Below, one piece after another: positions 50,901 to 56,900 of a stretch of 64,000 nucleotides of DNA (position 1 is its first letter; the number at the start of each line of letters is the position of its first letter). Source of the DNA: Escherichia coli O157:H7 (GTDB taxonomy: Bacteria > Pseudomonadota > Gammaproteobacteria > Enterobacterales > Enterobacteriaceae); the NCBI RefSeq assembly GCF_013167455.1, contig NZ_CP038328.1. One strand, 5' to 3'. A program made the position numbers.

Positions 50901-53900
50901 TGCGCAATCTCCCCGACTGTCGCCGGTTCGGTAACGCTTAATTCATCAAACACAACTCTGGCGGTTTCTGTCATATCCTGCTGTTTCAGCATGTCTTTTT
51001 ACCCTTTCCGGTTAACGTGACATACCAATAACTCTTGTCTAAAAAGCCAGCAAGATAAAAAGCCAGTATTCACGACCACCAGCGTGTTTACTGTACTGCA
51101 CCAGGTTTACAGGTACAAAAAAACCGCTCAGCGGCGGGTTTAAGTTGTGTGGCGAAGTAACCACTCTTAACAGCATATTTGATTTTTTACGATTGTAAAC
51201 GGTTGATTATTCATCTCCAATAAAAATAATTGTGTGGGTATGCCCTTAACAATGGATAAGAAACATGAATAAAATGACTGTACTATTACTTAGCGCAACT
51301 ATCATTTCAGGTTGTACTTCTTCCGTACCATTGATAAAGAAAACTCAATCAGGAAAACCTGAGGGGGTTTATCAAAATACGACAAAAGATAAAGTCAAAG
51401 ATGCCCTTGTGAATTACTGCAATAGTAGAGGGTTGATAATTTACAACGCGGATAACAGCAGTGTTATATGTGGTAAAGAACTGGAAGGCGGCTCTGCTGT
51501 TTTTGGACAAATGTTAATCGGCAATGCCTATTCAACAACCCCGGTATCAAAAGTCAGATTTACTATCGCTCAAGTTAATAACGATACAAAAGTGTGGGCC
51601 GATATGTGGATGGAAACTCAAATGGCAATGGGGCAAGTACAACAAATGTCTATAACAGACAACGCAAGCAAAAACACTATCCAACAACGTCTTGATGAAT
51701 TAAAACCTTAAATAAATTAAATAAAATGGGGAGAATAAATCGACTCCCCACACATTAAACTGATTCAATTACCCCCTCAATAAGAGGTCTTCTAACGATC
51801 CATCTCTAGCTCAATTTCTAACATCATTAACATGCCATCAACTACACCTTCAGCCTTTTGCAATAAACGCCCAACCCAGCAATCAGAACGCCCATGTTTA
51901 CGGGCAAGCGCCATAAAAGTCATACCACCTACATAATAATCCACTAATAAATCGTGCAAATCGCTGTTGTTCTTTTTCAGGCGAGCCATGCATCCACAAA
52001 TGATCATCGCGTCATCGTCACAACATTGCGGGCGGGATTTTACTTTTGAAGGGATTAGTCCTTTAAACCCTGCAGCAATAGACGACCAGGTGACATCCTC
52101 GTGATTATTTGCCACCCATGCCCCCCAACGTTCAAGAACCATTTGAATATCACGCATCAACTTTCTCCACAAAATCAGGCCAGCACGCCAATTGCCAGCG
52201 CACGATCGATAAAACGAAATATCAGCTCCAGCTGGGAGCCATACTTCTCTTCAAATGCCACGGTATCCGCATGCAGCTCGTCGTGATGCTTTCTGCACAA
52301 AGGCAACACAAAAAGGTCATGCGCTTTTGTTCCCATTCCACCCTGACCGTGACCTATCAGGTGGTGGGGATCATCAGCGGGCTTTCCACAACATGCACAC
52401 GGCTGTGTCTTAACCCAGCGCGTGTACTTTTCATTAACCCAGCGGCGACGTTTTGGGCGTAACATAAAAGACTCCGGCGACTCCGGATCCACTTTCAGCG
52501 CCAGCACCTTTTTCGCCTTATCCTGGATGATGCTGGTGGCAGGAACCGAAGGCACAAGGTCACTTTCCCGGGTAACAGACGGCACAACAGGCTTCGGTAA
52601 TCTCAGTGCCTTACGGGCTGCACTTTCCGGTAAGGCATCCGCCAGATCATTACGAATCAGCCACCAGCACAGTTCCGGCATTGTCACAACGTGACTGTCA
52701 TCAAAACCGAGATCCCGACGCACAACAGACAACACCCAGCGGGCACAGTTATCCGTTGCCATTGATTCCAGCCGTTCCGTGAACTGATCGCGCAGCTGGT
52801 TATCGCAGTGCCAGCACAGACGGATTGCACCCGGAGCGTGTCGCATTGTGGTCATGTTCTCGCTGTGCCAGTCGGAATGAGGCCACTGGCAGCCTTTTTC
52901 ACGAAGTAACCAGCTTTCAAGACATTCCACGCCACCAGCACGACGGATCACTGCCTCATTGCGGAACACGGCCCGAACGGCAGGATCATCCGCCAGCGGT
53001 TGTGATGCCGCCGGAACGGCACCACTGGCGAAAGATGAATAACGCTCCGGCTCAGGCTCCAGCAGGACACGCCCCTGCATAAACAGGGGCATCAGCTCTG
53101 AACCTGGCCTGAACAATACGATCCCCATACGCGGGGCAATTTCAGGGGTCAGTAGTGCTCTCACGGTCACCTCAATGAACGGTATCGAGCAGCTTTAACA
53201 GCTCAGGGAATCGGGATTCGAAGAAATGCGGCTGCGTCTCGCGCGGATTTGCGGGACTGGTGATGTTCTTGCCGAACATGCAGCCTTTCGCTGTCAGCGA
53301 CCAGAATTTTTTGATGTTGTTAATCGCGGTACGACTGTATCGTTCGCGCTGCTCGACGATCCCCAGTTTCACCATCTGGTGATATGCCTGATTAGCCGTC
53401 AGGCGTATACCATACTGTTTCAGCAGTGCACTCAGTGACAGTGTCGGGCGACTTGAGCCATCGTGTGCATCAGCAGGAGCATCAATGGCATAGCGCGGTG
53501 CCAGATTCGGTAAGCCAACAGCCTCCTGGAGTTTCTGACAGGCACCAAGCACAGATGAGTTAGACAGGTTTAACTCCCGACGCATAAAGTCCAGCAGAAT
53601 CACACCAGCCTGCATCTTGTCAGCAGCCTGTCCGGATAATTTTTCCGGTGCGCTGGTTACCATGTCGAAAGTACGGATCACCTTAAGATGGAATGACGGG
53701 CTTATCCACATTGCATAGGCATACACCAGTTCCTTGCAGACATACGTTCCCCGTTCATTTCCCCCATGAATCACACTCACCGGGTCAACACCCAAATTCT
53801 GGGTGTTGGTCAATTCATGAACAAGTTCAACAGTTTGTTGGCTGGAAAGAAACTTTCCTGGCTCCTTGGTTCTGGCATTTGCACCAGATGCTACTGCTGC

Positions 53901-56900
53901 GCGATGTAGATCGTTCAGGCTGTAACGCCCATAAACATCACGACGAACTTCAATACCATCAATGACCATCAGATTATTCATACTTCGTTTCTCCTCTTGA
54001 TCAGGCGGCTGCACCCGCCGTTTTCTCGTACTTACTGATAGTGATCTCGACCTTCCCTTTCGGGATAACCGGTCCCACTCCACCAGCATTCTTTTCACCT
54101 GACTGTCGTCTTCCCACACACCCGCGTGGGTCAGGGCGTCAAACAGCGCCTTGTTATAGTTGTCCAGATCGCGGATCCTGTTATCCGGAGGAAACAACAC
54201 GATCTCCACTGAAGCAGGTGCCGACGTTGGTTTCGGCAGACGACGTAACTGCTCAATGATGGCGGCACACGCCGCGCTCTGAAATTTTCGCCCCGCCTCG
54301 CTTATCAGGCTCTTACCAGCAAATGCCCCTTTGTTGGGGTGTCGCCAGTACGTGTTCACGCTGGGCGGGAAAGGCAGGATCAGCTTCATACTTTCAGGCC
54401 CCTCTGATGTAACCAGTGGGTTGCACGCAGCCTGGCGTTTTCCTCACCGGCAAGCAGTGAGCGGATAATCCCGACCGCCTCGCTGTCGTCGTCCTTCACC
54501 GCGGTATGAAGCGTGATGCCCCGGGCCACGCCACGCTTTATCGTGATGACACCTTTTTTCTCCAGTGCGCGAAGATGCTCCACCGCTGCATTCACTGAAC
54601 GGTATCCCAGCATGATTGCCACCTCCTGATTGGTTGGCGGGAAGCCACGTTCTTTCTGATAAGAAATCAGCATATCCAGCACCTGCTGCTGGCATTGAGT
54701 TAACGTCGTCATGCCGCCATCTCCCTGACCAGTTTTTCCGCCTGCTGGCGAACCTGCGCCAGAAACGCCTCACCACATGCCTCAAGTTCATCGCGCCCGA
54801 TGTAGCTGATTGCCGGTCCCTTCCAGGTCTTATCGAAAACAGCAATAGCACCAGCGAAGAAAGCGCCTGTCGGCACCTGCTTCTCATCCTTCGGGATAAA
54901 CCAGGCAGGCAGTTCAAAACCAATACGCCCGCGAATAAAAGCAATATGGTCCGCATCTTCCGGCCACCACACTTCGCTGGTGGCAGCTTTGATCAGGAAA
55001 ACATAGCGCCCACCCTTATCACGCATGGCACTGGCATGTTTCATGATGTAACGCATGCCGGTGATGTATTGCCCCTCATGCTGACTGGCGCGGCTGTATG
55101 GGGGATTACCAAAGGCAGCCCCTTTAAGCTCCGCAAGACGTTCTGACCAGTCATGCGCCAGCGCGTTGTCTTCCGCCGTGTAATACGCAGCACATTTGGC
55201 GTTATCACCGTCAGTGAACAGATCCAGAACAAACGGGCCAAACAGGGTGTTAATTCCCCAGAAAATGTTGTCCGGCGTGCGCCACTGATCACCCACTTCC
55301 TTCAGTTCATGGGCTGGTTTGTTCCGCAGTTCCACCAGCTCCTGGCAATATTTATTACTCATTAAGCCCCCACGTAATTCCCTGACAGATACCACTCATC
55401 ACCCGATACAGCGCGCTTGCTGCTTTTCCGTAAACACTGCTCACGACGCGCCAGAAAATTGTTTCGTTCTGGCTGGGAGTGGCTTTCACGGAATGCCGCC
55501 ATCCACACCGTTGCAGCACGACGGTATAAGCCCCTGGACTCCAGTTCTTCCGCCTGGCGGGTCAGGCACAAAATCACCCGGGGATCGTTAGTGCCGACAT
55601 AGAAATTGCGCACAGGTCTGGTTTCACGAACTGGTTGTGGTTCCGGCTCCTGCGCTCTCTCAGTCAGGCGTGGGAAATGTCTGCGTGTATCTCCTTCACA
55701 ACGGTGAGCCACACGCCCACTCTGACGTAACTTGCTTGCTGACTGCAGAACGCGCTGCCGTGAGTAACCTGCAAAAGCATCCGCAATGTCTCCGGAAGTA
55801 CACCCCGGATGGGCTTCAATGAATTTCTGAACTTCATTCAAAAGACTCATGATCACCCCCTGAATCCTGCCGGGATCTGGCTGTAGTCCACGTTGTCGTA
55901 ACTGGCTTTGAAGTACGGGTCCTCGCGTCTGGCTGCAGATACCGCAGGAACTTCCCAGGATTCTTCGAAATGACGATCCGGACCAAAGAACGTGACAGCC
56001 TGTTTCACAAATTGTGTGCCGCTGTTACCCATCGCAGATACCCAGCCCGCGTAGCGTTTCACACCTTCCAGCATGGTTTCGGGGTTTACCCCCTCATTCA
56101 AACGGGCTTTCCAGGCTTTGAAGGCTGCAGATTTTGAATTGCCACCAGCACGTTTGGGATATGCCAGCCATGCCTGCTCAAACTCCGGAGAGTATTCCGG
56201 TCGGTTTGAACGAACTCGCACGGACTCATCAACTGATGCACCAACAGCTATTGGTTCATTGACTGGTTCTTTGACTGGTTCAAAAGAGTGACTGGTTCTG
56301 GGTGAATCTCCTGCACTACCCCCTGGTGCAACTCCTGCACTACCTGGTGAATTTGCTGCGCCAGATAGTGAATTATTTGCACTACCCCCTAGTGAATCTC
56401 CTGCACCATCCAGATGAAGGAGATAGATATTACTTGAGTTACCTTTTTCACCTTTCCGGGTGACTTTTTTTACCAGCCCGGACTCACAAAGGGCCGCAAT
56501 ATGATTCATCACAGAACGTTTGCTAATCTCGCACTGGTCAGCAATATGCTGGTAGCTGGGCCAGCACTCCCCCTGATCGCTGGCATTATCAGCCAGCTTG
56601 ATCAGAACCAGTTTTCGCAATGGATTACCCACTCGAATTTTCATCGCTTTAACCATCAGCTCCATACTCATGCTGCACCTCCGAGATGCTTCATGTTTTT
56701 TCCGGAGCGAAAGGCTATAAGCGGCATACTGACGCGGTAATTACGGCCCAGCGGTTCACAAATCACCTTCTGACATTCACGGTCAACCAGGCTAACACGT
56801 AGAACATGCCCTGCAGGTGTGGTGTACCACTGACCCGGACGAGGACAACGGAAAGTCTGATTGGTAAACCGTTTGAAAATATTCCGGATCATTTGCGCCC

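Follow-up and report, generated by a model that had tools for sequence, protein, structure and literature searches.

A long reading frame with RusA and KilA-N domains

An open reading frame (ORF) of 405 codons in a prophage of Escherichia coli O157:H7 carries both a RusA-like resolvase domain and a KilA-N domain, which raises the question of whether it encodes a genuine fusion protein or joins two separate genes. The ORF is located in the window, that is, the whole stretch of 64,000 nucleotides analyzed here, and was first described in an earlier note, which proposed either a genuine fusion or an internal start at the ATG of MNNLMVIDG. As that note had observed, the minus strand of 53172..54389 could be read as one ORF with an ATG start and zero internal stops, and Pfam, PHROGs and a frame check all agreed with a single ORF containing both domains. 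In Pfam, RusA (PF05866) was matched at residues 6-104 (E = 7.5e-13), a match that was C-terminally incomplete (model positions 1-110 out of 124), and KilA-N (PF04383) was matched nearly full-length at residues 143-245 (E = 1.4e-21; model positions 5-105 out of 107). In PHROGs, the RusA-like resolvase family phrog_34 covered residues 1-113 (E = 2.2e-48) and phrog_129, annotated as 'transcriptional regulator', covered residues 137-403. The matches to the two domains are far beyond chance. The residues between them (106-136) were an out-of-frame reading of the 3' end of rusA, its stop and the intergenic spacer. The parts of the ORF are as follows:

53172..54389, minus strand: 405-codon ORF, comprising RusA residues 1-105, a 31-residue out-of-frame linker and a complete KilA-N protein
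54075..54389, minus strand: rusA codons 1-105 in the native frame, including the catalytic region RDLDN..K (R73-K80) and D94/D95
53982..54074, minus strand: out-of-frame linker, codons 106-136, DRLSRKGRSRSLSVSTRKRRVQPPDQEEKRS, from the rusA 3' end, stop and spacer; not a native linker
53172..53981, minus strand: KilA-N domain gene, 269 aa plus stop, intact; ATG at 53981..53979, KilA-N domain at approximately 53963..53655

The 405-codon 'fusion' is two neighboring prophage genes joined by the loss of one nucleotide, either a frameshift lesion or a base-calling error. It represents no new protein architecture or mechanism but an ordinary case.

One base fewer in rusA

All homologues examined have a run of four Gs where the window has three (TGGGGA to TGGGA). 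In the alignment to four E. coli homologues (97.9-99.6% identity), the lone gap fell in this G run. The lost G affects codons W105-G106 of rusA and lies 73 nt upstream of the normal rusA TGA, which is itself unmutated. By tblastn, the native C-terminal tail of RusA was recovered in the adjacent frame with 100% identity to homologue residues 106-129. The two features concerned are:

54074..54076, minus strand: lesion site, GGG where homologues have GGGG; single-base homopolymer deletion (GGGG in all four aligned E. coli homologues)
54001..54075, minus strand: native RusA C-terminal 24 codons, GPVIPKGKVEITISKYEKTAGAAA (54075..54004), and TGA (54003..54001), now in the adjacent frame

A mutated rusA stop codon, with readthrough into the next gene, was therefore dismissed as the cause, given the intact TGA and the deletion upstream of it. 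The earlier note had named such a case, in which homologous loci would uniformly show two genes with a stop codon mutated only here. The first part was borne out by the homologues (see below); the second was not, as it is the upstream deletion in the G4 run that shifts an unmutated stop out of frame.

The 405-codon ORF could have originated as follows. In a common lambdoid run of genes (LexA-like, rusA, KilA-N domain gene, DUF968 and Q), rusA would lose one G of the G4 run and thereby move into the +1 frame. In alleles of the type TGATCAAG, this frame stays open past the old stop and across the 19-nt spacer, and it is the frame of the KilA-N gene. Because the +1 frame is open and shared with the KilA-N gene, the two genes are read as a single 405-codon ORF.

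Homologous loci consist of two genes

All of the best 30 E. coli matches were annotated as two genes and spanned 1219 nt, one more than the 1218 nt of the window. In 2,208 complete E. coli genomes, the deletion allele was present in none of 2,819 homologous places searched with a 61-nt probe across the site, where the absence of any place matching at 99% or better was taken to mean that none carried the deletion. Viral contigs of IMG/VR contained no match to the 25-mer with the deletion and at least 120 matches to the 26-mer with G4; in all 93 assessable viral loci, rusA terminated at a stop of its own and was followed by an ORF in the +1 frame. Among the sequenced-phage matches listed, every one that covered the full query in one piece spanned 1219 nt, and all annotated full-length ones had two genes, including mEp460, cdtI and SfV (orf43/44). 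The 405-aa protein was absent from approximately 15 billion proteins by exact look-up. Judged by titles and abstracts, we found no relevant literature on RusA together with KilA-N.

Thus, the genuine fusion considered in the earlier note does not fit the homologous loci, which were uniformly two genes in complete genomes, viral contigs and sequenced phages. A selected bifunctional protein, a resolvase with the KilA-N DNA-binding module attached, would agree with the open frame and with both domains being recognizable in a single ORF. In addition, a handful of other ORFs in the protein database carry both RusA and KilA-N domains. However, these database fusions resulted from at least six different lesions (in a G run, an A run, a C run or AA, by internal deletion, or by a lost T of TGA), and each formed a cluster of one or two sequences on one or two contigs, whereas the standalone clusters had approximately 1000-2300 members. 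Moreover, the linker is an out-of-frame rusA tail, the RusA domain is incomplete, and the open frame of the linker is not a conserved feature, since the KilA-N frame was closed by a TAA five codons before its ATG in 63 out of 105 homologous loci. No fused homologue was found among the complete genomes or sequenced phages surveyed. The homologue survey, together with the fact that the database fusions are heterogeneous singletons, led us to dismiss this explanation, and we consider it very improbable. Taking a real mutation and a sequencing error together, it is almost certain that the ORF is not a genuine fusion.

A conserved prophage module

The genes on either side of the two joined ones are:

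54386..54712, minus strand: 108-aa protein with LexA N-terminal DNA-binding domain, intact; upstream neighbor of rusA
52175..53164, minus strand: DUF968 protein, 329 aa from its annotated start, intact; downstream neighbor of the KilA-N gene
51792..52157, minus strand: antiterminator Q, intact; after the DUF968 gene

rusA begins at an ATG (54389..54387) that shares bases with the stop of the LexA-like gene before it (ATGA). The same order (LexA-like, RusA, KilA-N domain, DUF968 and Q) was observed in the lambdoid phages mEp460, cdtI, SfV (orf42-44) and 1720a-02 and in Stx2c-type prophages. DNA identity over the 1.2-kb segment was 96-98% to these phages and reached 99.6% with E. coli prophages. 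All of the phages have a separate rusA (390 nt), a 19-nt spacer and a KilA-N gene (810 nt); relative to them, rusA of the window has one G fewer and the two reading frames are joined.

In strain C41, DUF968 and Q are annotated as frameshifted, which, like the lesion in the window, represents a single-base indel in the conserved prophage module. A PGAP-type annotation would call such a lesion a frameshifted pseudogene. Unlike ordinary prophage frameshift pseudogenes, the shifted frame here is open and in phase with the KilA-N gene, so a naive ORF scan yields one long ORF with two domains where a truncated ORF would be expected. Long multi-domain ORFs in raw sequence may therefore be frameshift artefacts and should be viewed with caution; in the present case, a single alignment to close homologues was enough to settle the question of fusion.

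Mutation, sequencing error or programmed switch

We consider a real deletion in rusA of this prophage, joining the reading frames of two ordinary genes, to be the best explanation, with a probability of about 60%. It would represent a slippage mutation, and a real mutation is favored because the assembly does not appear to be indel-prone: no gaps were found in the alignment of window positions 1-16660 to an O157:H7 chromosome.

It should be noted that the uniqueness of the allele among thousands of homologues and its homopolymer site also fit a base-calling or assembly error, in which case the genome would truly have GGGG, and rusA and the KilA-N gene would be intact and separate, encoding 129 and 269 aa, respectively. 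Assembly errors are most often of this kind, a single-base homopolymer undercall; the allele was missing from all E. coli places and IMG/VR contigs searched, and the native RusA tail is perfectly preserved in the other frame. Similar database fusions are also singletons, mostly from automatic Logan assemblies, some with other odd substitutions (for example, P0019). On the other hand, the G run consists of only four bases. The 16.6 kb of chromosome next to the prophage was gapless against a finished O157:H7 genome, and 17 neighboring prophage genes were full length, each in one frame (tblastn), which argues against a generally indel-prone assembly. Resident prophages commonly contain single frameshifted genes, as exemplified by DUF968 and Q of strain C41. 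A sequencing or assembly artefact is thus a possible but distinctly less probable explanation than a real deletion.

An independent G4 to G3 change was also present in P0016 (contig L007), which has another prophage background.

The same recurrence could speak for recoding or phase variation, in which slippage in the G run (transcriptional, ribosomal or replicative) would switch between separate proteins and the hybrid. However, UGG GGA contains no canonical slippery heptamer or stimulatory element, and known contingency tracts are far longer than four Gs. The G3 form occurred in none of the 2,819 E. coli places or the viral contigs, the alternative frame is shut by the TAA mentioned above in most of the 105 homologues, and the other recurrences were at different, non-repetitive positions, which fits random lesions over a target of approximately 100 nt. 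Programmed frameshifting or phase variation was dismissed in view of the missing slippery motif, the four-base run and the unconserved alternative frame, and appears to be the least probable of all the readings. It is similarly improbable, though marginally less so, that the deletion is real and the hybrid is abundant with a new activity (the RusA fragment being competent or dominant-negative while tethered to a DNA-binding module), or that the short G run is a mutational hotspot through which resident prophages repeatedly lose the phage resolvase, at which the independent change in P0016 hints.

Probable effect on RusA

The catalytic acidic residues and lysine of E. coli RusA are D70, D72, K76 and D91, and its fold consists of a four-stranded sheet and two helices (PMC1636454). 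The restored 129-aa homologue aligned with E. coli RusA of the DLP12 prophage (PDB 1q8r, 2h8c) over RusA residues 6-116 (E = 1.5e-17), and the RDLDN..K and DD motifs were conserved in the alignment with 1q8r. Residues 1-105 of the window ORF were identical to this homologue, retaining D74, D76, K80 and D94/D95. In the same alignment, the frameshift fell at RusA residue ~102. The C-terminal segment of RusA (~102-116, PVTKGGRLELTITE) was missing from the 405-aa ORF, and homologue residues 106-129 were encoded in the adjacent frame only. Compared with E. coli RusA, the domain is thus incomplete, with segment ~102-120 swapped for a basic peptide and the whole KilA-N protein. RusA is probably inactivated, because the part aligned to residues 102-120, approximately the last sixth of the fold, is replaced by an unrelated basic peptide. 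This structural statement is based on the 1q8r alignment and the published description of the fold (PMC1636454); an AlphaFold2 single-sequence model of the native 129-aa RusA had a mean pLDDT of 42.8 and was left unused.

The practical effect should be small: judging from the sequence, the prophage probably lacks a working RusA resolvase, and its KilA-N regulator gene is intact. RusA resolvase is an accessory, non-essential function of the nin region in lambdoid phages.

The KilA-N gene and its start

The other option of the earlier note, an internal start at MNNLMVIDG, agreed well with our results: it is at this ATG (M137 of the ORF) that the standalone KilA-N gene of 269 aa normally starts, also according to its annotation. 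A search for translation signals before the KilA-N segment identified the following:

53991..53995, minus strand: Shine-Dalgarno sequence AGGAG, 9 nt before the KilA-N ATG

The 269-aa product from this ATG exactly matched a standalone protein on at least 1000 contigs, and in annotated relatives the gene is a separate CDS with its own start. The spacer before the ATG, AAGAGGAGAAACGAAGT, was kept in most homologues, and the spacer, Shine-Dalgarno sequence and ATG of the window were the same as those of mEp460/cdtI/SfV-type phages. The start of the KilA-N gene at this ATG is fixed by the TAA that lies five codons upstream in the 63 loci. Thus, with a real deletion in rusA, the normal 269-aa protein would still be made from its own signals, and ribosomes arriving from upstream without termination would yield some 405-aa hybrid as a by-product.

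In NCBIfam, the KilA-N protein, the DUF968 protein and several cargo ORFs matched no family. The KilA-N protein was 99.6% identical to those of mEp460 and cdtI. Among 40 phage relatives listed from a spread sample and compared by name, it was called KilA-N domain protein or transcriptional regulator and in no case Roi; the 'Roi-like' label of the earlier note thus found no confirmation. The C-terminal half of the KilA-N protein was common to Bro-N and antirepressor proteins.

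The apparent one-base lesion in rusA ahead of the KilA-N gene

The window carries a single reading frame of 405 codons, and both domains that the earlier note had read in it (RusA and KilA-N) were found by Pfam; the PHROGs assignments were concordant with them. The features of this frame are as follows:

53172-54389, minus strand: 405-codon ORF, ATG start, no internal stop
ORF residues 6-104: RusA domain (Pfam, E 7.5e-13)
ORF residues 143-245: KilA-N domain (Pfam, E 1.4e-21)
ORF residues 1-113: phrog_34, RusA-like resolvase (PHROGs)
ORF residues 137-403: phrog_129, 'transcriptional regulator' (PHROGs)
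54076-54074, minus strand: GGG, lesion site, codons W105/G106, 73 nt upstream of the rusA TGA
54003-54001, minus strand: rusA TGA, out of the ORF's frame
53995-53991, minus strand: AGGAG (SD), 9 nt 5' of the internal ATG
53981-53979, minus strand: internal ATG (M137, MNNLMVIDG), start of the KilA-N gene

Three-frame translation across the junction revealed that ORF residues 106-136 (DRLSRKGRSRSLSVSTRKRRVQPPDQEEKRS) are no natural linker. In the adjacent frame stands GPVIPKGKVEITISKYEKTAGAAA and then TGA, the usual C-terminus of this RusA family, and the Pfam RusA match therefore ends at model position 110 of 124. When the window was aligned with four E. coli homologues (97.9-99.6% identity), the sole gap was at the lesion site, TGGGA in the window and TGGGGA in all four. 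In these homologues, rusA (390 nt, 129 aa) is followed by a 19-nt spacer with an SD and then by the KilA-N gene (810 nt, 269 aa) in the +1 frame relative to rusA; thus, the loss of one base from rusA places the two genes in phase. The internal start at MNNLMVIDG, one of two readings left by the earlier note, proved to be right: an SD and a start codon were sought ahead of the KilA-N segment and both are present, and the 269-aa translation from ATG 53981 exactly matched a standalone protein, part of a 2,327-member cluster, that is found on at least 1000 contigs.

Homologous loci in bacterial and viral genomes

The 1,218-nt segment was matched in 2,318 of 5,426 complete E. coli genomes, and all of the best 30 matches spanned 1,219 nt and were annotated as a RusA family endonuclease and a KilA-N domain-containing protein. 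A 61-nt probe centred on the deletion, for which the window allele would require at least 99% identity, matched 2,819 places in 2,208 complete E. coli genomes; none reached 99%, so the window's allele occurs at none of these places. Among IMG/VR viral contigs, a 26-mer with four G had at least 120 matches and the deletion-specific 25-mer had none. All 93 assessable loci fetched from this k-mer scan have a rusA closing at its own stop and the next ORF in the +1 frame. For sequenced phages, 45 records covered at least 80% of the segment. The listed matches with the full query in one piece spanned 1,219 nt, and every annotated one had two genes, including mEp460, cdtI, SfV (orf43 and orf44), 1720a-02 and Ayreon; several Stx2c-type prophage records among the matches listed were without annotation. 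The exact 405-aa sequence was not found in a collection of ∼15 billion proteins.

The other reading, a genuine fusion, was to be given up if homologous loci uniformly proved to be two genes; the loci surveyed are, and it does not stand. We consider it nearly certain that the ORF is not a genuine fusion, and what the window presents is an ordinary single-base frameshift, or an error of base calling, in a two-gene module that is well known. Three other accounts (selected fusion, programmed frameshift, phase variation) were weighed, and all are disfavoured.

Rare fused entries

Homology search with the 405-aa query retrieved a few proteins with both Pfam domains, and their alignment showed no single junction common to them all:

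P0016: G-run shift, same as the window's
P0017, P0024, P0062: shift in the A4 run ahead of the G run (…VKECWWSGDRLS…)
P0022: shift in the CCC run
P0023: shift at an AA dinucleotide
P0018, P0019: short internal deletion (401 aa)
P0020, P0021: T of the TGA stop lost

All of these are clusters of one or two sequences, each found on one or two short contigs, and most derive from automatic Logan assemblies; the standalone forms make up clusters of roughly 1000-2300 members. Since the P0016 contig represents another prophage, with a differing repressor and replication genes and, within 60 nt of the site, differing SNPs, the change from four to three G that it has in common with the window is an independent event or independent error, not common descent. 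One further protein, P0076 (Salmonella Typhimurium, 3.6-kb contig, 344 aa), differs in kind from the window's ORF: the order is reversed, with the last ∼90 residues of RusA (its C-terminal part) placed after the KilA-N protein, probably reflecting a rearrangement or misassembly.

In alleles of the window's type, 38 codons upstream of the KilA-N ATG are open in its frame, and a fusion therefore results from any net -1 lesion within the final ∼100 nt of rusA. This geometry explains the rare fused entries. The open frame itself is not conserved: of 105 homologous viral loci, 63 have TGATTAAG in the spacer instead of TGATCAAG, with a TAA in the KilA-N frame five codons before the ATG. There, the ATG is the only possible KilA-N start and the same deletion would give no fusion. 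Public annotation is inconsistent, giving the KilA-N gene 280 aa in some genomes, from a GTG 11 codons upstream (VQPPDQEEKRSM…); this extension (53982-54014, minus strand, and homologous loci) overlaps the rusA end. As the TAA closes it in those 63 loci, the conserved start is the ATG of the 269-aa form.

Real mutation or sequencing error

We favour a real mutation in rusA (probability roughly 0.6). That GGG is a sequencing or base-calling error is possible but less likely. The window allele is unique, the lesion lies in a homopolymer, and the native rusA tail persists downstream without decay, all of which would suit an error. However, window 1-16660 showed 19 mismatches and 0 gaps against the chromosome of O157:H7 strain PA20 up to dusA, and many O157:H7 genomes match the first 12 kb at 100.0% identity. 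Seventeen early-region proteins annotated in the closest prophage each run full length in one frame in the window, and RusA alone splits between frames, with residues 1-113 in one and residues 106-129 (100% identity) in the next. Thus, the assembly is not generally indel-prone. Moreover, resident prophages often have isolated frameshifts, as in C41, where the annotation marks DUF968 and Q as frameshifted.

Likely products

Since its SD, ATG and complete coding sequence are all kept, the KilA-N gene should still be translated into the normal 269-aa protein. Ribosomes starting at the rusA ATG would no longer terminate before the KilA-N ATG, and some 405-aa hybrid would be made. By alignment, the hybrid retains the RusA catalytic motifs, D74, D76, K80 and D94/D95 corresponding to D70, D72, K76 and D90/D91 of E. 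coli RusA, whose roles are described in PMC1636454. The segment aligned to RusA residues ∼102-120 is lost, and the replacement of RusA's last sixth probably abolishes folding or dimerisation. Since RusA serves lambdoid phages as an accessory function, the prophage need not be disabled. As a RusA family member the window's rusA is incomplete, and frameshifted rusA pseudogene is the best name for it; the KilA-N gene belongs to its family as a normal member.

The surrounding prophage

The gene run LexA-like/RusA/KilA-N/DUF968/Q is common to the window and to mEp460-, SfV-, cdtI- and Stx2c-type lambdoid phages, and the window's KilA-N protein has 99.6% identity with the mEp460 and cdtI proteins. 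Bro-N and antirepressor-type proteins in distant phages share the C-terminal half of this protein. The name Roi was not found among the relatives listed, so the label 'Roi-like' in the earlier note was not confirmed. Sporadic frameshifts of single genes are common in this module; in a close relative (E. coli C41, locus L004, 2727-4219), rusA and kilA-N are intact and the annotated frameshifts are in DUF968 and Q.

Window 1-16660 is E. coli O157:H7-type chromosome (soxRS, pdeC, ssb, uvrA, aphA, tyrB, alr, dnaB, qorA, pspG, dusA). Chromosomal homology stops at dusA beside a tyrosine-recombinase ORF, which indicates a prophage or island (16660-64000) integrated at dusA. None of the complete E. 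coli genomes searched has a prophage early region nearly identical to the window's (best match, 97.7% identity over 90%). Other features include:

16746-17843, plus strand: integrase-like tyrosine-recombinase ORF, adjoining dusA
18477-19397, plus strand: ORF, 306 aa
19622-20227, minus strand: ORF, 201 aa
46643-48493, minus strand: ORF, 616 aa
51265-51711, plus strand: ORF, 148 aa
49667-49918, minus strand: three tRNA genes (Met-CAT, Arg-TCG, Arg-TCT), downstream of the antiterminator Q gene
49947-50660, minus strand: AraC-family regulator, 237 aa, between Q and the tRNA cluster

The four sizeable ORFs of 616, 148, 306 and 201 aa had no NCBIfam match; that of 148 aa has a lipoprotein-like N-terminus and is kept beside Q in relatives, whose annotation calls it hypothetical. 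The tRNA cluster downstream of Q is an arrangement typical of Stx-type and O157 lambdoid prophages. The AraC-family protein resembles YdeO/GadX (NCBIfam E 4e-31, under the curated cutoff) and may, from its place in the prophage, regulate acid-resistance or virulence genes of the host.
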